From IMG/VR virus record IMGVR_UViG_3300032046_000036, positions 1 through 51,684 of that record: a DNA stretch of 51,684 nt; one strand, given 5' to 3'. The notes under the pieces are model-generated. The model saw nothing but the letters and a program-made list of their open reading frames with translations. It was not told the DNA's origin and did not search any database. Source of the DNA: a virus (Duplodnaviria; Caudoviricetes). Shown here piece after piece: positions 4,647 through 51,684 of the stretch. How positions within the stretch are numbered: position 1 is the first letter of the stretch; each line of letters begins with the position of its first letter. The translations under genes and the position numbers were made by a program.

Positions 4647-5897
4647 CTACGTTTCTTTGTCTCCTTGTGCAGGCGGATACTCAAAATACGGATTCCCTTC
4701 CTCGCCATACTTCAGGTTGCACGCCCCTTTTTGAAGGTCGGTCAGTTTCTCTATGAAATCGCCGGCCTCCTTGATAGTCAGGTCTGACGAAGTCCCTTTC
4801 TTGTAAAGAGCCATCATCATTGTTTTCCTTATAGCGGTGTCCAGTCTTAACTCGCCGCACAAGACGAATATCTTCTTGCCCTGTGCCTGTGTAAGGAATA
4901 ACGTCTGGTCATTACTGAGACCTCCACTGGTTTTCGGTATAGGCTTCATCTCCGGTTTTGGTTTTCCTTTCTTGCCTTGTTCCTGCGGTTTCTCGGCTTC
5001 TTCCTGCCCTGTCTGACTTGCTGGAATTTCCGAGGACTCCCTTACCTCCTCCTCATCGGTTACCACCACCGCATCCGTGTCTGCCCTCGGGTTATCATCT
5101 ATAGTCGGCAATAGCACCCTCTCAACCGAGGCTTTCGGTAGAATTCGTTCCGTATCTTCCCTATACCGCATAATGTCTTCAGGGGTATAGGGTAATGCCG
5201 GCGTATCCGCCTTGAGTCTGTATTCCATCCGTATCACCAGCGGATAATGGGTGGATTTGTGTTGCTTGCCCTTGTTGTCTGTATAGGTAATCTCCCTTTT
5301 CTCCCGCTTTAGAATCAAAGGCACCAGAGCGAATCTACCGAGCAATTCTTTGGCGAATTCAAGCCCAGATGACACATCTATCAAGGTGTTGCTTGAACCG
5401 GTAACTATCCGATAGACTCCACCCATATTGAGTCTGTGTAACATCACATAGAGAGTTCCTTGCTTGTTGCATTGGCCATCAGGATTATCAGGGCCTTTCA
5501 GTTCTTCACAGGGGCAATCCCGCACCATCCACTGCCTTGTCGCCTCATCCCACCGTGATGCCTCTATCCTATTACCCTCGCACTTGAGTCCATTAACCCC
5601 CCACCACCTCAAAGCCTGTGGGAAAATAGTGGGTATATCGTTAATAGGGAGCATTACCTCAAGTTCCGTGGGCTTCTCTCCATAAACCCGTTGCACTTCT
5701 GGTGGCACAATGAAGTAAGAGACATCGGATGGGTGGGAACAGAAGTCGCAGTATTCGGTTTGAGGGTGCTTGCATTTCGGGGAATTACCGCTCTTATTCT
5801 TTATGACGACCCCTAGTCTTATTTTACCTAACATCGGCAATCGTCTTCGCTCGGAAATTCCATCTATCGTGGAATATTTCCTGCCAAATCCTGCCAT
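4647..5897 (-). CDS. Gp3-like (recombination directionality factor-like) recombination protein
   Basis: RLPMLGKIRLG N-terminus, LKCEG and CPC..C motifs, GVYRI.T.S; adjacent to exonuclease. Confidence 0.65.
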   Translation of the reverse strand: MAGFGRKYSTIDGISERRRLPMLGKIRLGVVIKNKSGNSPKCKHPQTEYCDFCSHPSDVSYFIVPPEVQRVYGEKPTELEVMLPINDIPTIFPQALRWWGVNGLKCEGNRIEASRWDEATRQWMVRDCPCEELKGPDNPDGQCNKQGTLYVMLHRLNMGGVYRIVTGSSNTLIDVSSGLEFAKELLGRFALVPLILKREKREITYTDNKGKQHKSTHYPLVIRMEYRLKADTPALPYTPEDIMRYREDTERILPKASVERVLLPTIDDNPRADTDAVVVTDEEEVRESSEIPASQTGQEEAEKPQEQGKKGKPKPEMKPIPKTSGGLSNDQTLFLTQAQGKKIFVLCGELRLDTAIRKTMMMALYKKGTSSDLTIKEAGDFIEKLTDLQKGACNLKYGEEGNPYFEYPPAQGDKET

Positions 5898-36638: not shown

Positions 36639-38783
36639 TTACGGCGCCTTGCTTGGTAGTGCTATGCACCGACAGTTTATCACATTACCGGGTTCGCCTT
36701 CTATATCTGACGGGTATTTCAACCCGTTTGAGAATTTGTTACCAACCATTATAACCTCTCCATCTATAGCGTGGTTATAAGGGCTTGCAGGCGGTTGCCT
36801 GACGAATTCATCTCTTGCTGATAACCACTCGTGATATTCCATCCCTTCCATTCTCATAGCCAGAAACCGCGTGCCGGATGAGGTCTGTGCGGTTTCTGTT
36901 CGGGCTATGGTTAGGGAACGGTTAGATGTGAAATTAAATACCGTCTTTATCCTGTCCTGTAATTCGTTTATAGTTTCTTTGGCATTGATACCTTCCATCA
37001 GTGTTTCTCGCAGATTGCTTCTAACGGTGTCATTTATGCCGACTACTTTTATCAGTTTCTTGTTAAGAAATTCAATCATTTTAGGGTCTGTTAAGTTGAA
37101 CAGAAATAGTCCGCCAGTTTCTTCTGCAAGTTGCTGTCCTGCCATTGTCATAATCGTTTCATAAAGCGGTCTCGTTATTTCCTTCAACCGCTTATTCCAT
37201 TCCTCTTGTGCAAATAATATCTGGTCAATATCTGAAGCCTCAACCTTTATAATGTCTTTTCCCCCTTCAAGTCGTTTCAATTGGTTGACGCGTAATTCAT
37301 AGACATACCGTTTTATCTTGCTCTGGAATTTTTTCTCATTGGGGTCAAGTATTTTCTCTACATAACTATCCCAATATTTCTTGCGGTCTATTTTTAGTGT
37401 TGACTGCCTTCGGACTGTCTCCTGTGCAGGTGGCGTTCTGGGTGACTGTTCTTCACTACCACCAACCAGTGATGATGCAGGGACTAATGCGAATGGAATA
37501 AACGACTCATTACCCCATGGGACATCTTCAAGATTGAGTTCCAGTCTCTTATTTATCTTGTTCAAGGGATAGTGCATATCAAATAATATCTTGGCTGACT
37601 CAAGTTTTACCTTGAAGTCTTCCTGCAATGCCTCAATTATAGAAGTATCAAAGTATCCCCATATCTGACCACCTTCAATGAACTTAAAGAATTTCCCCTC
37701 AACCACATCCATTAGGTAGTTCATCTTGGGTATGAGATTCTTCTGCCAAAAGCCTTTGTCTTGGGAAAGGGCGGTGGCGAAATTTAGGTCTTCATAGACT
37801 GACAGTTCCGATTTCGGCACTTTGAAAACCGCCATAATTTCGTCCCGATTCCACTTCCTCTGCTCAAGAAACAGCATATCGGTATGGCTTAACTGCGTCT
37901 GCTGGTATTCAATCCCGCCCTCCAGCATCGCTATCCGTCTCGCCTTACCCGGCCCTTTGTGCCTATCTTCCCACGACTGTCTGATGGCGGTTCGCTGTTC
38001 TTCAGTAAGCCCTTGCGTGCCTTTATAGACCAGTATACCACCGGGGTCGGCAGAATTCTCAAAGAACGCCGAGTTCCATCTCATTGCGTTCCAGTCCTGG
38101 TCTATTCCCATCTTTGCGGCGGAAAGTGGGGACAGCCCCCTGTAATAATTATAGGGATTGAAATATTTGAACTGGATGACCTGGGCAAGAGTGAGGTTAA
38201 TCGGCTCTAACTTGTTATCTTCCCTGTATTCCCATCCTATAATCATATTGTTTTTGACAATGGGCTTGAATTTTCTTCCGCTGACCGGCCATATTTCTGT
38301 AGGCAAAACCTCGTATTTTTCTTCACTCCCTTTCGGCTTCTCCAGTAACCACATACACTCGCCATCCAGCCCCAGATAAATCATTGTCGCTTCCCATAAC
38401 TGGCTCCGGCTTATACTGGGATTAGGATTGAGGAAAAGGTCGTATATCTTGCCTTCCTCAATTATCTTCGGGCTTTTTACCTCTCCTTTTGCCAGTTTGA
38501 ATGAGACTCTGGCTATATTCTGAGCGATGGCATTGATGCATCCATAAACCCACGAGTGCTGTGCGTATGGTTGTGTGAGTTCGTTCTGACCAAGCCTCAG
38601 CCTCAGGGATTGGAAGAAAGTAAGGTCGTCAGGAAGCGTTCCTACTTGCGACCCCTTGACCTTGCCATAAAGGAATTGGCGGGTTGTCCTATCAAGCGGT
38701 TTTGTTTCAGTCTTCACCGCCTTGGATGGTTTCGGTAACCTGTATTTGACTATCCGTTTTATATCGCTTTTTTTATTACTCAT
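36639..38783 (-). CDS. Portal protein fused to Mu gpF-like minor head domain
   Basis: VYGCINAIA, RGLSPL, FFENSA.PGGIL, FKVP; C-terminal IARTET, W.SARD..VR, NCRC. Confidence 0.9.
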   Translation of the reverse strand: MSNKKSDIKRIVKYRLPKPSKAVKTETKPLDRTTRQFLYGKVKGSQVGTLPDDLTFFQSLRLRLGQNELTQPYAQHSWVYGCINAIAQNIARVSFKLAKGEVKSPKIIEEGKIYDLFLNPNPSISRSQLWEATMIYLGLDGECMWLLEKPKGSEEKYEVLPTEIWPVSGRKFKPIVKNNMIIGWEYREDNKLEPINLTLAQVIQFKYFNPYNYYRGLSPLSAAKMGIDQDWNAMRWNSAFFENSADPGGILVYKGTQGLTEEQRTAIRQSWEDRHKGPGKARRIAMLEGGIEYQQTQLSHTDMLFLEQRKWNRDEIMAVFKVPKSELSVYEDLNFATALSQDKGFWQKNLIPKMNYLMDVVEGKFFKFIEGGQIWGYFDTSIIEALQEDFKVKLESAKILFDMHYPLNKINKRLELNLEDVPWGNESFIPFALVPASSLVGGSEEQSPRTPPAQETVRRQSTLKIDRKKYWDSYVEKILDPNEKKFQSKIKRYVYELRVNQLKRLEGGKDIIKVEASDIDQILFAQEEWNKRLKEITRPLYETIMTMAGQQLAEETGGLFLFNLTDPKMIEFLNKKLIKVVGINDTVRSNLRETLMEGINAKETINELQDRIKTVFNFTSNRSLTIARTETAQTSSGTRFLAMRMEGMEYHEWLSARDEFVRQPPASPYNHAIDGEVIMVGNKFSNGLKYPSDIEGEPGNVINCRCIALPSKAP

Positions 38784-39096
38784 CTATACGGTTTAATTTT
38801 TCTATCATAAGATTGTGTGCATGGTGGGTCTCTGTTGCAAAGTCCTTGATTGATTGTGTCAAACTCATCTGTGCCTGTATGTTTTCATTAATGTGATTGC
38901 CCAAAAAGTTTTGATATTTCGCAGTAATTTCTTTCCTCTCTGTTGTTGCCTCGTCTAATGACTTGACAAATTGTGCTTGGATATTCTCCTGTGATTTGAC
39001 AAACTTTTTCACTAGCCACCCCAAGAAGGATAGAAGGATGACGATTAGTCCGGATTGAATCCCATAATCCTTTATGATAGTTGCGATTCCATCCAT
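38776..39096 (-). CDS. Single-TM coiled-coil protein (BhlA-like holin candidate)
   Basis: N-terminal TM followed by charged helical tail. Confidence 0.5.
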   Translation of the reverse strand: MDGIATIIKDYGIQSGLIVILLSFLGWLVKKFVKSQENIQAQFVKSLDEATTERKEITAKYQNFLGNHINENIQAQMSLTQSIKDFATETHHAHNLMIEKLNRIDE

Positions 39097-39110: not shown

Positions 39111-39146
39111 AAAAAAAAAGCCCGAATGATTCGTCATCACTCGGAC
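39111..39146 (-). terminator. Intrinsic terminator in the leader of the head/tail operon
   Basis: GTCCGAGTGAT-GACGA-ATCATTCGGGC followed by T9. Confidence 0.85.
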
Positions 39147-39166
39147 TTCGGTTCTTCCGTTAGTCC
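39143..39166 (-). promoter_or_regulatory. Candidate antiterminator hairpin (motif copy 1)
   Basis: GGAC-TAA-CGG-AAGAA-CCG-AA-GTCC shares GTCC with the terminator 5' arm. Confidence 0.6.
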
Positions 39167-39262
39167 TATTGGCGGGATTGACTGGCTTCTTGTTTTCTGG
39201 CTATTAGCCTAACTTTTTGCCTTCTCTGTCGCACCCGCCTAAATTGACTTAATTATGCTATA

Positions 39263-39290
39263 AGAATAACACCAAAATCTGACTTGTCAA
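39263..39290 (-). promoter_or_regulatory. sigma70-type late promoter
   Basis: TTGACA, 16 nt, extended -10 TG-T-TATTCT. Confidence 0.65.
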
Positions 39291-39340
39291 GTAAATTTTA
39301 TATTTTAGGTGAGATAATTTTATACTTTGTAAAGTATAAA

Positions 39341-39532
39341 CTATGATGCAACCAAACTTTTATTACCCTCAAACCCCTTTATATATCCTTCCAAAAACGA
39401 TTCCTGCCATAACAACATAACCCAACGCTTTAGGGCTTCTCTTTCATTACCAGCCAGACAGGGAAAACCATCTAATACCTTGTCAAGGTTACTAATATCA
39501 ATATCCGATATGTCACTTTTTGGTAATTCCAT
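39341..39532 (-). CDS. Hypothetical protein
   Basis: 63 aa ORF in operon orientation. Confidence 0.5.
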   Translation of the reverse strand: MELPKSDISDIDISNLDKVLDGFPCLAGNEREALKRWVMLLWQESFLEGYIKGFEGNKSLVAS

Positions 39533-39542
39533 ACTTTATATT

Positions 39543-39746
39543 TTAAGACTTCTGTTGCTCACTTATCTTCTCCATCCTGTCCTTTATGAGTCTTGTCCGC
39601 TCGCTTCTTATCCTGATGGCTTGGCCGTTCTCCACCTCAATTATCAGTTTCCCCCAGAAACCGTCCCTCAACACATCAGGGAGTTCCTCAAGCAGGAGTT
39701 CGTATAGAGCCTTCTTCCGCAGTTCCTCTTGCGTTGTTTGTGCCAT
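39543..39746 (-). CDS. Small DUF2292/YezD-like protein, candidate RNA-binding regulator
   Basis: AAGGAG RBS; helix then FWGKLIIEVENGQAIRIRSERTR, matching a [FY]G.l.I.v..G....I pattern. Confidence 0.5.
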   Translation of the reverse strand: MAQTTQEELRKKALYELLLEELPDVLRDGFWGKLIIEVENGQAIRIRSERTRLIKDRMEKISEQQKS

Positions 39747-40388: not shown

Positions 40389-40730
40389 TGGTGGAGGCGG
40401 GCGGAATTGCACCGCCGTCCATACGGACTTCCATAATAGCATCTACATCCATATTCAAGCGTTTTTTCTCAACGACTAACCGGTTGCTTGAACACCGATT
40501 AGCCATCCAGCAATAGTTTGTTTCAGGTATCCTACCTATTGCTATAGGAAACCATATCCGAAACTTTAGCGTCGCACCTGACTATCGGAGTCATCGGGTT
40601 TGACGAACGGCTATGCCGCTTTTCTTAAAGGTTCAGCAGTTAAGACTGCGACCGATTTTTAGCGTGGCCCTTCGGTCAACCACGGAATGCAACTATTACT
40701 TCCATCCGCTGTCGAATCTAATTCGCCCCC
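40389..40730 (-). ncRNA. ssrA: Complete one-piece tmRNA; tag (A)AEPLRKAA* at 40637-40611
   Basis: 5' GGGGGCG...GATTCGAC; 3' GGCGG-TGCAATT-CCGCC-CGCCTCC-ACCA; G3:U wobble; TAACT-GCT resume context; 342 nt. Confidence 0.95.
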
Positions 40731-40884: not shown

Positions 40885-42456
40885 TCATATCACCGATATT
40901 TTCGGCTCCGGCCCGAATCCTATATTTCTAATTTGCCAGCAAATAGCCCACGCTATTATAGTATCATCATAATCGCCCTCGTATTTACCTTCCCCACTAT
41001 CTTGAAAATTTCGGCATTCCGATAAGAATATCGGACAGTTAATCTTCATAAAATTGTTTTCAACCGCAGTCTTTATACCAGAAAGCATAATTGGTCTGGT
41101 CTTGAGGTTAGTCTGCCAGCCAAGTTTGACCGACTGGCCTACCGCGTCATAATCTCTGTGATAATAAAGCCGGGGATAATGCAGGACATTAAGTAGTGTA
41201 TTGAGTGTGCTATGCCCGTGATTATTCGCTTCTGGAGCCAGCCAAGCCGTATTATATTCATAGCCAAGTTTCGCCATTTTCTCGCCAAATACTTCCGGTT
41301 TCCACCGACCGTGCAGGCACGCAACCTGCTCTCCTGTTTCATAGTCAAGGACTCCGGCACAGGAGAAGTCTGAATTAGGCAGTCCTTCACCGACATCACC
41401 ACCTATAATATATTTATGTCCTACTATAGGTTTGACCCAGATAATCAAGCAACCATCCTCTTTGACTTCTATTGGTAATTTACATAAAGAAATAAGTGTG
41501 TTTATGATTGTTATATCAAAGTAATGTTGACCCGATACGACAAAAGCCGTAATGTCATCTTCTGGGTGTTCCTGTAAAAATAGTTTCTTCAAACCATTCT
41601 GTTTGCTTCTCCGCCACTTCAACTGTTCTGGTCTAATTGTTATCTGCCATTTCTCAGCCACCATCTTGATAAAATCCTTTTCCTCGGCAGTAGGAACTAT
41701 CTGTTCATCTTTCTCAAGAGATAATGAATTCGCTGGTTCTATGAACCAAGGCAGGAATATAGGTATCCAGTCGTTTCCACCCTTCTTTGCCTCGTCCCAA
41801 GTCTCAAAAAACCATCCCTTCGCCCCTTGTGCTGTGCCTTCCAGCACCACGGAACCGTATGGACAAGCCTCACATAAGCCGGCAATCAGGTTCGCTATGT
41901 CTTGAATATTCATAGAGTATCCAGTCTTGGTCTTGCCCCAGAGAGGAACCTCGCTCCCGTGAATACGCTGGAGTGTCATACTGCGCCCGAAAGACCTGTT
42001 TCCGGCTGTGCCAATATGGAACTTTGAATTGAGTTCTTTATACTCTATCTCCGCCTTGTTATCGTAATCCCTGACTGGTTTAATTTCTGGTAAGAGTTTT
42101 CGGTCAAACAGGTTGGCAATTCTGAATATTTCCACCGTGCTTGCCTTGTCGTGAGCAAGAGTAATAAGATTCTGGTTCTCCTTTGTCGCGGTGAGATAAA
42201 AACTTTCCGCCTGCTCTTCAGTTGTTATTCCACCTTGTCTGTATTTGAGCACAAGATAGTGTGGTAAGACACTGCTGTTCTTTTCTTGTCGTTTCTGTAA
42301 TTCTATCCTTTTCATCCGCCTGTATATTATCTGTGTTCGGTTGAAGAACAATGGAATTATCCGCTCCTTCTTGTCCCTAATGTAGAGAAAGCGTTGGATG
42401 TAACGGGCATCACTATTGAAAATATCCCTGATATTATTCGGTATTGTTTGTGTCAT
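40885..42456 (-). CDS. terL: Terminase large subunit
   Basis: VLKYRQGGIT Walker A, HGSE Walker B, EGTA motif, IGGDVGEG and DDTIIA nuclease motifs. Confidence 0.92.
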   Translation of the reverse strand: MTQTIPNNIRDIFNSDARYIQRFLYIRDKKERIIPLFFNRTQIIYRRMKRIELQKRQEKNSSVLPHYLVLKYRQGGITTEEQAESFYLTATKENQNLITLAHDKASTVEIFRIANLFDRKLLPEIKPVRDYDNKAEIEYKELNSKFHIGTAGNRSFGRSMTLQRIHGSEVPLWGKTKTGYSMNIQDIANLIAGLCEACPYGSVVLEGTAQGAKGWFFETWDEAKKGGNDWIPIFLPWFIEPANSLSLEKDEQIVPTAEEKDFIKMVAEKWQITIRPEQLKWRRSKQNGLKKLFLQEHPEDDITAFVVSGQHYFDITIINTLISLCKLPIEVKEDGCLIIWVKPIVGHKYIIGGDVGEGLPNSDFSCAGVLDYETGEQVACLHGRWKPEVFGEKMAKLGYEYNTAWLAPEANNHGHSTLNTLLNVLHYPRLYYHRDYDAVGQSVKLGWQTNLKTRPIMLSGIKTAVENNFMKINCPIFLSECRNFQDSGEGKYEGDYDDTIIAWAICWQIRNIGFGPEPKISVI

Positions 42457-42463
42457 TTCGCCT

Positions 42464-42964
42464 TTAGCCTCCGGCCGTTATCTGCTTGTCTTCGTTTATT
42501 ATCGTCTTGTATTCTTTCGCCCGACTCTGCCCGATTTCTTTTATCAATTTTTCTATCCCGCTCACATAATCGGGCCGGCTATCGGCCCCGCCGTAGAGGA
42601 ACTCAATCAGGCGGGTAATCTTGTCCACATCTCCGACAGTCCCCTTGAGTTTTTTATCCGTTATAAGATTTGTAAGGTATGCCAATGTTCCCTCTGCAAC
42701 CGCTATGTTTCTCGCCCTTATCTCCGCCTGCCTTTTACCAACCTTTTCTAATATCCTTATTCCCATTTTGTCCCAGTAAACCCTGCGTAATAATACCCAT
42801 TTTTCCTCCTTCGCCTTCCGTCCCAACTGTGATTGACTTATACTAAATTCCCCTGCCAATTCGTTCATAGACGGCTCGTCTTCCCTGTTGATATAAGCCG
42901 TTCTGATTGTCAGCCACTTGCCTTGGGTATTCTTCTGTTGAATTTTCCGTGTGTTTTTAGGCAT
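42464..42964 (-). CDS. terS: Terminase small subunit
   Basis: N-terminal HTH (SMNELAGEFSIS...KAKEEKW); directly upstream of terL. Confidence 0.7.
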   Translation of the reverse strand: MPKNTRKIQQKNTQGKWLTIRTAYINREDEPSMNELAGEFSISQSQLGRKAKEEKWVLLRRVYWDKMGIRILEKVGKRQAEIRARNIAVAEGTLAYLTNLITDKKLKGTVGDVDKITRLIEFLYGGADSRPDYVSGIEKLIKEIGQSRAKEYKTIINEDKQITAGG

Positions 42965-42988
42965 CTTCGGTTCTTCCGTTATTTGCCT
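42959..42988 (-). promoter_or_regulatory. Motif copy 2, covering the terS initiation region
   Basis: AGGCA-AA-TAACGGAAGAACCGAAG-A-TGCCT; outer stem includes TG of the ATG. Confidence 0.6.
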
Positions 42989-43107
42989 GTAATTCTCTGA
43001 TAAAGTAGCCGATAAAAAATCCGTATAGATTTAGCATTATCAAGATTATATGGCGACCTTAATAATTGTTCGTGCCACTCCCCGCAATCACTACAATTTG
43101 GCATATG

Positions 43108-49505: not shown

Positions 49506-49518
49506 ATTTTATCCCCTT

Positions 49519-50154
49519 TCATTTGGTTTGATTTAACAACCCAAGTCCGTAATTTAATATCTTAAATTTCGTTGCCTCGTTAGTTGCCGCCGCATAAGCC
49601 GCATAAACCGCCTTAGCCGCATAAGACGCCGCCTTCTTAGCCGCATAAGGCGCCGCATTAGCCACCGCATAAGACGCCGCCTTAGCCGCATAAGCCGCCG
49701 CCTTAGCCGCATAAGACGCCGCATAAGACGCCTCATAAGCCGCATCAGCCGTATAAGCCGCATAAGACGCCGCATAAGCCGCATAAGCCGCATCAGCCGC
49801 ATAAGCCGCCGCCTTAGCCGCCGCATAAGCCGCCTTTTTATTTTTCGCTGACGGATTCTTAATACATTTCTTCGCCGCCTCTATCGCCTTTCTGGGACGG
49901 TCATCATCAGGATATTTGGTTTCATATAGGTTTATTACCTGTTCTGCGGCATAGACTGCATATGATACACAATCGTGATAAGTCATAATCCGCACGATGA
50001 ACCAGTTCGCCCAATCATACTTTTCAGCCTTCATCATTTTGTCCAAAAGGGACAGTGAGTCCCTTTCTTTTTTGTCCCACCACTCAATCGCTTCCTGACA
50101 AGGTGTATTCTTTGTAATCCATTTATCAGTTATTGACTTTATTATCGGTTTCAT
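49519..50154 (-). CDS. Ala-repeat, Imm5-like protein paralog 2
   Basis: YPDDDRPRKAIEAAK followed by AAYAA repeats. Confidence 0.8.
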   Translation of the reverse strand: MKPIIKSITDKWITKNTPCQEAIEWWDKKERDSLSLLDKMMKAEKYDWANWFIVRIMTYHDCVSYAVYAAEQVINLYETKYPDDDRPRKAIEAAKKCIKNPSAKNKKAAYAAAKAAAYAADAAYAAYAASYAAYTADAAYEASYAASYAAKAAAYAAKAASYAVANAAPYAAKKAASYAAKAVYAAYAAATNEATKFKILNYGLGLLNQTK

Positions 50155-50173
50155 TTTCGGTCTCCTTTCCTCT

Positions 50174-50419
50174 TTAGATAGTTACAAATTCACCATCTTT
50201 GGTTAGTCCATAATATCCTTGTATTTCAGGCAATCCATAAGCAAGAGCCAGTCTATGACATTCCTTTTTGGCATCAAATGTTGCTTGGTCTTTTCTTATT
50301 CCTTCGCCACAAGAAAAAACAATCATAGTCTCCCCTTGTTGCCACCCTTGAGTTACTAATCTAATTAGTTTTTCCTTATCTTCCTTTGTTACAAATACAC
50401 CAGTCTTATTCATTTTCAT
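50174..50419 (-). CDS. Hypothetical protein
   Basis: RBS, operon packing. Confidence 0.6.
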   Translation of the reverse strand: MKMNKTGVFVTKEDKEKLIRLVTQGWQQGETMIVFSCGEGIRKDQATFDAKKECHRLALAYGLPEIQGYYGLTKDGEFVTI

Positions 50420-50427
50420 TTTTCCTT

Positions 50428-50733
50428 TCATTTATCGGGGTTATATTTTACAATTAACTTATTTATATCCTCTGTCCACTTAGCAAGATTAGAGGGGTCA
50501 ACCTTTAAGTCGTGCAAATCGCTTACAATCTCGGCTTTTATCTGTTTGCATAAACCATCAATATATTTTGTTACCCATTCTTTTGTTGCCAAGTCATCCA
50601 CCAGTTCGGCTTCTATTTCTATATAACCCCCTTTCAGCGTTTCGGGAGGATATACTTTAATATCTGATTTAATCCCGTGCTTTAGAAAATAATCCAGTAA
50701 ATCGTCTATATGAAATCTAACTTTAACCTTCAT
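50428..50733 (-). CDS. Hypothetical protein, KVKVR paralog 2 (mosaic)
   Basis: N-half matches 886-1236; C-part shares a segment with 162-515. Confidence 0.75.
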   Translation of the reverse strand: MKVKVRFHIDDLLDYFLKHGIKSDIKVYPPETLKGGYIEIEAELVDDLATKEWVTKYIDGLCKQIKAEIVSDLHDLKVDPSNLAKWTEDINKLIVKYNPDK

Positions 50734-51155: not shown

Positions 51156-51167
51156 TTTCTTCTCCTT

Positions 51168-51684
51168 TCATTTGGTTTGATTTAACAACCCAAGTCCGTA
51201 ATTTAATATCTTTAATTTAGTTGCTGCCATATTAGCCACATCAGCCGCCTTAAACGCCACATCAGCCGCCTTAGACGCCGCATAAGCCGCATCAGACGCC
51301 GCATAAGCCGCCGCATCAGCCGCCTTAGACGCCGCATCAGCCGCCTTAAACGCCACATCAGCCGCATCAGACGCCGCATAAGCCGCATCAGACGCCGCAT
51401 AAGCCGCCGCATCAGCCGCCTTAGACGCCGCATTAGACGCCTTAAACGCCACATAAGACGCATTAGCCGCATTTTTATTTTTCGCTGACGGGTTCTCAAT
51501 ACATTTCTTCGCCGCCTCTATCGCCTTTCTGGGACGGTCATTATCAGGATATTTGGCTTCATATAGGTTTATTACCTGTTCTGCGGCATAGACTGCATAT
51601 GATACACAATCGTGATAAGTCATAATCCGCACGATGAACCAGTTCGCCCAATCATACTTTTCAGCCTTCATCATTTTGTCCAAA
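51168..51684 (-). CDS. 3' part of Ala-repeat, Imm5-like protein paralog 1 (starts at 165 across the junction)
   Basis: Near-identical flanking domains to 49519-50154 with a different Ala repeat block. Confidence 0.85.
   Translation of the reverse strand, partial: LDKMMKAEKYDWANWFIVRIMTYHDCVSYAVYAAEQVINLYEAKYPDNDRPRKAIEAAKKCIENPSAKNKNAANASYVAFKASNAASKAADAAAYAASDAAYAASDAADVAFKAADAASKAADAAAYAASDAAYAASKAADVAFKAADVANMAATKLKILNYGLGLLNQTK

Follow-up and report, generated by a model that had tools for sequence, protein, structure and literature searches.

A candidate protein-dependent antitermination gate before the late genes of a tailed phage and the widespread hairpin element that overlaps its terminator

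In the BglG/SacY/LicT systems, a weak and imperfect hairpin upstream of an intrinsic terminator shares bases with the terminator 5' arm, and a small RNA-binding module stabilizes this hairpin. Targets of ANTAR proteins consist of two tandem hexaloop hairpins, the second of which overlaps the terminator, whereas the lambdoid late switch is built from the promoter pR', the 6S RNA, the terminator tR' and the Q protein. Beyond the models lambda, T4, and T7, the timing of late genes is, to our knowledge, largely unknown for most phages. Here, we analyzed a complete virus record of IMG/VR (IMGVR_UViG_3300032046_000036; 51,684 bp with a 58-bp terminal overlap), referred to as the window, in which a short RNA hairpin overlaps an intrinsic terminator in front of the portal gene and a gene for a 67-residue protein lies upstream. 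All long open reading frames (ORFs) and all window features reported below are on the minus strand. We put the probability at about 60% that this region is a protein-dependent antitermination gate before the portal and head genes, similar in its working to BglG and its ribonucleic antiterminator (RAT), and small uncharacterized proteins probably open this gate.

The element in front of the late genes (copy 1) folds as GGAC-UAA-CGG-AAGAA-CCG-AA-GUCC at 39166–39143, with an outer helix P1 (GGAC/GUCC, 39166–39163 with 39146–39143), a linker UAA, an inner helix P2 (CGG/CCG) closed by the loop AAGAA, and two adenines on the way back to P1. The 3' strand of P1 is at the same time the base of the terminator 5' arm, and the minimum-energy fold assigns GUCC to the paired stem of the terminator. 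The terminator stem runs directly into a U-run, as expected of an intrinsic (Rho-independent) terminator, and is predicted to be active. Its local fold reaches −20.9 kcal/mol, compared with −16.8 kcal/mol when P1 and P2 are enforced, so the hairpin costs ~4 kcal/mol; the enforced hairpin leaves just a 7-bp upper stem that is set back from the U-run. In a genome-wide scan (51.7 kb) of the coding strand, 39111–39149 emerged as the only strong terminator-like site. As this terminator precedes the portal gene, all genes share one strand and no comparable terminator is present, late genes would be reachable only by read-through. Promoter, terminator, hairpin, 67-residue ORF, and a repeated 17-mer had all been described in an earlier sequence-only reading of this DNA and were found where it had placed them. 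The genes terS and terL are located upstream of the gate and not behind it.

Related contigs were recovered by terL alignment, yielding a lineage of the window and three contigs with terL identities of 81% (L023), 78% (L025, where terL is split by an insert of ~1.08 kb), and 61% (L024, on the same contig as L018 and L022). No close DNA relative was found by blastn among 50,697 phage records. The intergenic DNA of L023, L025, and L024 does not align with that of the window. Just ahead of the portal start, each relative nevertheless carries the core CGGAAGAACCGA(A/G) together with a promoter-like site and an intrinsic terminator. L023 and L025 retain 18 nucleotides (nt), CGGAAGAACCGAAGTCCG, identical to the window, with an upper terminator stem that differs in sequence; L024 keeps CGGAAGAACCGAG, and its terminator starts inside the CCG of the core, i.e., within P2. 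The promoter-like sites before the element comprise 11 of 12 matches with a TG in L023, TTGCAA-16-TG-TATATT in L018/L024, and a site recognized by eye in L025. L023, L025, and L018/L024 encode homologs of the 67-residue protein at the corresponding position. Hence, the layout reminiscent of lambda pR'/tR', with promoter-like site, element, and terminator directly before the portal, is present in all four lineage phages, and the motif persists near the homologs, as the sequence-only reading required.

A second copy of the element lies just before terS in all three contigs that reach the terS start (window, L023, and L024; L025 begins inside terS). In the window, the 17-mer of copy 1 is repeated exactly at 42981–42965, abutting the ATG of the terS-like gene. 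This repeat by itself is weak evidence: one or more repeated 17-mers turned up in 21 of 100 genome sequences simulated with a second-order Markov model. What places the element beyond chance is that its core is kept at both positions in relatives whose intergenic DNA is otherwise unalignable. A third and weak match to R1, the covariance model (CM) of the RNA element, was observed inside the portal coding sequence (37985–38015; 14.6 bits, expectation value (E) 0.006; CUG-AAGAA-CAG, encoding GLTEEQRTA), probably a coincidence.

The element is not confined to this lineage. Viral contigs were scanned for the 12-nt core with a T6 run 15–45 nt downstream, resulting in 73 loci and 66 distinct instances, including the separately added one of the window; judged by terL or portal, many have no relation to the window, yet they display the same architecture. 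The consensus consists of a P1 of 4–5 bp, a 3-nt linker (UUA or UAA), a 3-bp P2, the loop AAGAA, and an A. P1 sequences are diverse (GUCC/GGAC, GGC/GCC, GGG/CCC, CAGG/CCUG, and others), and P2 covaries as CGG/CCG, CCG/CGG, GCG/CGC, and CUG/CAG. Among 145 pattern matches, viral and genomic, P1 reaches at least 4 bp in 46%, compared with 24% when the halves are randomly re-paired. Fifty-three instances with a T-run, a paired P2 and a P1 of 4 bp or more were selected for alignment, after removal of two obvious non-core matches. Six of the seven pairs are changed on both sides, and the covariation score is 0.506, compared with 0.108 in shuffles, a score that not one of 500 shuffles attained; with slid partners it is at most 0.143. 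The pair-type diversity is not inflated by the alignment selection. In 40 of the 53 instances at least three of the four bases of the P1 3' strand are paired to the 8 nt that immediately precede the U-run, so that the competition of hairpin and terminator for GUCC, proposed for the window, holds there and in most aligned instances. The 13 exceptions include five probable false positives (L033, L043, L058, L073, and L088) and a subgroup with the terminator on P2 itself (L024, L040, L045, and L085). Mutually exclusive helices that share a strand are thus conserved across relatives, as is characteristic of a terminator/antiterminator switch. Scanning viral contigs for the exact 17-mer returned 16 loci, none of them related: 13 are in one identical context, and the remaining three are apparently coding (NGRTEE). 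In bacterial genomes the pattern scan returned mostly chance matches, only L119, L136, and L178 looking genuine. Neither the leader nor nine other element-carrying loci matched Rfam 15, with the leader giving no hit to RAT or any other family at E ≤ 10, and L239 (2600–2850) only chance-level miRNA matches. Literature titles and abstract openings did not tie the 11-mer core sequence to a phage regulatory RNA, and a literature search on phage late-gene antitermination brought up no description of this system.

Element and small protein co-occur in both directions. Starting from the protein, we picked 23 loci in Bacillaceae genomes by a DUF3954-like protein alone (231,882 nt, both strands). Nineteen of them carry the generalized element 12–1706 nt downstream on the same strand, no match occurs elsewhere or on the opposite strand, and two further loci possess the core without a T5 run. 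The cores that depart from the consensus in these prophages differ by compensatory changes, with inner stems CCG/CGG, GCG/CGC, CUG/CAG, and CGA/UCG, and with loops AAAAA, AAGAC, and AUGAA. Starting from the RNA, we considered the 25 viral instances for which 400 nt or more of upstream DNA is available, and small ORFs upstream were searched iteratively with a hidden Markov model of the family. A family ORF was found within 700 nt upstream in 14 and further upstream in four more (18/25), and all three genuine-looking matches in Clostridia genomes have one 27–43 nt upstream. In total, the family search upstream of RNA-picked instances yielded 22 ORFs of 43–73 residues, 9–383 nt upstream on the same strand. 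The RNA model run on five whole Bacillaceae genomes gave exactly one strong match each, namely the prophage site beside the small gene, and on 44 genomes of Bacillaceae it gave one match each in eight. Three of the seven non-query loci from the latter search harbor the protein upstream, one is cut by a contig end, and three lack a family gene; two of the three protein-positive loci are apparently the same DNA as L228 and L230. The statement in the sequence-only reading that such small genes adjoin similar hairpins is borne out by these counts, which also answer its call for a covariance model and a search for co-occurring homologs.

Collectively, the conserved shared strand, the position before late genes, the specific link to an upstream small gene and an energy balance that favors the terminator argue for a protein-dependent antitermination switch. 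The host-type promoter would start a transcript of ~145 nt that by default stops at the intrinsic terminator, a strong one situated 15 nt ahead of the first late gene. Because the 3' strand of P1 also makes up the bottom of the terminator stem, the two folds could not form at the same time, the terminator being favored by ~4 kcal/mol. The 67-residue protein, made from the upstream terS-terL transcription unit, would bind the P2 loop and the linkers and lock P1. A locked P1 would leave the upper hairpin away from the U-run, and RNA polymerase would continue into the late genes. A protein supplied by the terS-terL unit and a promoter placed before the gate would together constitute a simple timer. 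We infer promoter and terminator activity, protein–RNA binding and the direction of the effect; for binding and the read-through it would cause, we argue from position and co-occurrence.

Several observations weigh against this model. The family gene was not found in the available DNA of 7 of the 25 RNA-picked viral contigs and of three of the six testable RNA-picked Bacillaceae loci, where the factor may differ or lie further away. Fold and PDB profile searches gave the 67-residue protein no match to any known RNA-binding fold, and its family is tied only weakly to the DUF3954-like group (A7; hhalign probability 4%, E 0.0095). The four lineage phages are syntenic and their co-occurrence is therefore not independent evidence. 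The percentage of paired cells in the alignment is biased upward, since instances were admitted only if P2 was paired and P1 had 4 bp or more. Finally, at terS the start codon would be concealed once P1 forms, and the model explains this opposite outcome poorly.

The 7 of 25 viral contigs in which no family gene was found and the missing match to a known RNA-binding fold also speak for the best-placed alternative, that the element is a real gate read by a host factor, another phage protein or a small ligand, with the small protein a mere syntenic neighbor. A core that is near-invariant across very different phages would likewise fit a conserved host partner. We nevertheless regard this alternative as unlikely, given the two-way co-occurrence with 19 of 23 protein-picked loci and zero background matches, small-gene stop codons that often lie just 9–43 nt from the element, and a size of ~25 nt with a 3-bp stem that is very small for a metabolite aptamer. 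It is less likely still that promoter, leader, and terminator are mainly a small-RNA gene similar to lambda 6S RNA but with its own function, whose conserved hairpin acts in trans, e.g., by titrating a protein that also binds the terS leader, with late genes expressed by leaky read-through. A strong promoter followed by a ~145-nt transcript ending at a strong terminator, promoters before the element in L023, L025, and L024 as well, and a second copy at terS that is identical rather than complementary would suit such a gene. In many phages, however, the element follows the small gene by 9–40 nt, leaving no room for a promoter of its own, a complementary site is absent from the genome, and conservation of the strand shared by P1 and terminator points to a role in cis. 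We assign a very low probability to translation-coupled attenuation, where a ribosome ending the small ORF would cover the P1 5' strand and translation, not the protein, would pick the fold. Stop codons within a few bases of the P1 5' strand in several prophages, and distances of 12–21 nt from gene end to P2 in L239, L244, L233, L238, L236, and L242, are compatible with it; the window gene, however, ends 383 nt upstream with another ORF and the promoter in between, the distances reach 165–1706 nt in many loci, and the protein sequence is conserved as a folded domain. A double-stranded DNA site (terminase pac/cos or a late activator site) was rejected as hardly credible, for although one copy abuts terS, near which packaging sites often lie in pac and cos phages, and CGG-N5-CCG is an inverted repeat, compensatory substitutions in both stems keep pairing and not sequence, all matches are on the transcribed strand, and the element has one strand in common with an RNA terminator.

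The antitermination reading applies to copy 1, and no terminator follows copy 2. At terS, where the outer helix of copy 2 overlaps the start codon or the Shine-Dalgarno site, the same protein would probably act on translation. As read off the sequences, this helix is shifted to GGCA/UGCC and includes the AUG in the window and L024, and in L023 the outer helix UGGU/GCCG abuts the Shine-Dalgarno site.

The candidate trans-acting factor has few relatives. Only five small ones (P0002 and P0004–P0007) were found in two very large protein sets; an exhaustive search gave four relatives, a word-indexed search returned the protein itself only, and viral contigs gave no direct homolog. A metagenome scan added one 1-kb contig, and genome scans with profiles of its family (A2) and of a sister group (A6) found nothing. 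No Pfam or PHROG match was obtained, PDB sequence profiles gave chance matches only, and NCBIfam nothing significant. The AlphaFold2 model (predicted local distance difference test score 82) comprises a helix (residues 6–26), a β-hairpin (32–50), and a second helix (54–66). The structure prediction proposed in the sequence-only reading thus delivered a fold and no informative neighbor: the fold search gave no PDB match at E ≤ 0.001, and the best viral match (E 0.006) is nameless. Its label of DUF2292 (YezD) is upheld as a remote relationship and not as membership. The A2 and A6 alignments match each other in hhalign with a probability of 65% (E 6e-5), and three of the six A6 members match DUF2292 (best E 9e-4); the Pfam model PF10055, with a curated cut-off of 22 bits, does not hit the 67-residue protein at E ≤ 10, nor any of the six frames of the whole genome at that threshold. 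PF13128 (DUF3954) likewise does not match the window's protein. Among 26 aligned proteins, eight match DUF3954 (best E 2.1e-10) and five DUF2292 (best E 9e-4) at E ≤ 1. In the ESM Atlas, clusters bearing DUF2292 are nearest (feature score 0.83, structural template modeling score 0.60), which we take as a lead only. We place the protein with moderate confidence in a small-protein family that bridges DUF2292 and DUF3954. In the parts of the literature searched, both names are almost absent and neither family is given a function.

The genes behind the element suggest what is being gated. The first ORFs of 36 viral cases, not counting L119 and L178 with their implausibly long open frames, comprise portals (4), sigma or GerE-type regulators (4–5), and ChaB or head-protease proteins (4–5), further MuF, scaffold, capsid, and terL. 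Judging by these identities, the element sits where late or morphogenetic genes begin, or ahead of their activator. Of the 10 downstream ORFs scanned in Bacillaceae prophages, 6 encode sigma-70 region-4 proteins of 150–180 residues, directly behind element and terminator (L223, L232, L236, L239, L240, and L244), and in those six the direct target of the gate would be the late sigma factor rather than the structural genes.

Coordinates of the window features are listed in Table 1. In the order of transcription, a ParB-like gene, a 41-residue ORF, the terS-like gene, terL, and a transfer-messenger RNA (tmRNA) gene precede ORFs of 69, 126, 67, and 63 residues; beyond a 244-nt gap come the 106-residue ORF, the portal-MuF gene and the head and tail genes.

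Table 1 Features of the window around the proposed gate
Feature	Position	Strand	Remarks
Intrinsic terminator	39111..39149	-	14-pair stem 39149-39117, T9 at 39119-39111
RNA element copy 1, candidate antiterminator	39139..39169	-	CM R1 35.3 bits, E 4e-11
Structured 5' leader part	39171..39239	-	Long-range stem GGCGGG/CCCGCC with inner hairpins; lineage-specific
Sigma-70-type promoter-like site	39263..39290	-	TTGACA-16-TGnTATTCT; 10/12 matches, extended -10
63-residue ORF	39341..39532	-	Between 67-residue gene and promoter
67-residue protein gene (P0001), candidate trans-acting factor	39543..39746	-	ORF with ribosome-binding site, behind GAAGGAGA
tmRNA gene	40389..40730	-	Full-length; between terL and small genes
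terL	40885..42456	-
terS-like gene, 166 residues	42464..42964	-	Directly behind element copy 2, directly before terL
RNA element copy 2	42958..42988	-	Ends at terS-like ATG; CM R1 21.6 bits, E 1e-5
106-residue ORF	38776..39096	-	Hydrophobic N-terminal stretch; first gene behind gate; weak PHROG matches
Portal-MuF fusion gene	36639..38783	-	Pfam Phage_portal 1e-58, Phage_Mu_F 3e-9; start of head module

Leader and terminator together fold with z = −5.28. The 5' part of the leader is not conserved, as L023 and L025 have AT-rich leaders without the GGCGGG/CCCGCC structure, and for this reason we rejected this domain as an aptamer. L018 has a different GC-rich hairpin further upstream (5679–5745). 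A -10-like hexamer, CATAAT (39252–39257), lies at the predicted transcription start just past the -10 of the promoter. At lambda pR', such an element causes a sigma-dependent pause; here, it may be chance in AT-rich DNA.

Among the neighboring genes, the terS-like one has a weak match to PHROG terminase small subunits (E 0.005) and homologs in L023, L024, and L025. The 63-residue ORF has no Pfam or PHROG match below E 0.06 and no tblastn match at E ≤ 1e-3 in seven related loci, and the gene organization of L023 and L025, where the small-protein gene directly abuts the intergenic region, indicates that it is outside the conserved unit. The 106-residue gene is absent in L023, L024, and L025, whose portal gene directly follows the terminator. 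The tmRNA gene (115 bits in Rfam; tag peptide AEPLRKAA according to ARAGORN) is the sole Rfam match in the window that reaches the gathering score. The counterpart region in L018 has no Rfam match, so the gene looks like a lineage-specific acquisition. The putative 41-residue ORF upstream of terS (42980–43104) contains a CxxC motif, and its terminal TAA forms the first three bases of the 17-mer. In L025, the terL insert (1088–2166) separates residues 299 and 301 and could be an intron, an intein-free homing element or an assembly feature. Near the record ends, large internal duplications are near-exact (1–1250 vs. 49990–50720; 49515–49975 vs. 51164–51610), and the duplicated ORFs contain two GC-rich repeat arrays similar to GCCGCATAAGCCGC with a period of ~21 nt (49586–49820 and 51235–51420).

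More tentatively, and at slightly less than even odds, we propose that DUF3954/DUF2292-like proteins of ~50–70 residues are a previously unrecognized phage family of RNA-binding antiterminators, which would read a minimal AAGAA hairpin with a 3-bp stem and flanking A's, fused to a terminator or a translation start, and serve as a portable timer for late structural genes or a late sigma factor. If so, this timer would be used by phages of Bacillaceae, Clostridia, and uncultured hosts, DUF3954 and DUF2292 would obtain a first function, and cellular proteins of the YezD/OscA type might be RNA-binding regulators as well. The present analysis newly defines the element, both stems of which covary, counts how often it co-occurs with the protein in either direction, connects it to DUF3954 prophage genes and to late sigma factors of cultivable Bacillaceae, and adds a second expression platform at terS. 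The analysis yields a compact, searchable RNA signal with a candidate protein partner, and cultivable carriers are at hand in prophages of Virgibacillus, Heyndrickxia, Lysinibacillus, Gracilibacillus, and others. Should the pair work as proposed, late boundaries in metagenomic phage genomes could be annotated better, and synthetic biology would gain a very small protein–RNA switch.

How the locus compares with described systems depends on the part considered. The 67-residue protein resembles DUF2292 (YezD) and DUF3954 proteins in size, in a core of helix and β-hairpin, and in a G...G...E/R pattern. For the copy at terS, phage Mu Com and T4 RegA, small phage proteins that bind the leaders of mRNAs, offer a possible parallel, in that the 67-residue protein would act on a hairpin at a translation start; it differs in having no zinc-finger motif and no sequence relation to them. 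Unlike ANTAR targets, the element is one apical hairpin with a pentaloop, and no Pfam ANTAR match was found. Like lambda N and nut boxB, the window combines a small phage protein with a short hairpin that has a purine-rich pentaloop and occurs in two copies per genome in two leaders; in contrast to N, the protein lacks an arginine-rich N-terminal peptide, the stem has 3 bp instead of 5, and the element overlaps the terminator it would control. The lambda Q system is matched by the putatively constitutive host-type promoter, the short terminated transcript directly before the late operon and the regulator gene just upstream, and no Q, sigma, or RinA-type family was among the matches listed for eight ORFs around the site and 48 non-structural ORFs, a scan that left out ~26 structural-module ORFs between 14677 and 36624. 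The conserved signal here is an RNA hairpin beside the terminator, whereas that of lambda is a DNA site in the promoter, and read-through would apparently be local, by a competing fold, and not processive. BglG/SacY/LicT are similar in that the window hairpin lies just upstream of a terminator, shares bases with its 5' arm and is proposed to be stabilized by a protein. They differ in the protein, which has neither a CAT nor a PRD domain (no Pfam match at E ≤ 1, neighbors included), and in the RNA, which has an apical stem of 3 bp capped by the loop AAGAA and spans ~25 nt, compared with ~29 nt of the RAT consensus. Moreover, no control by the sugar phosphotransferase system is evident: the switch proposed here is phage-borne and would gate late genes.

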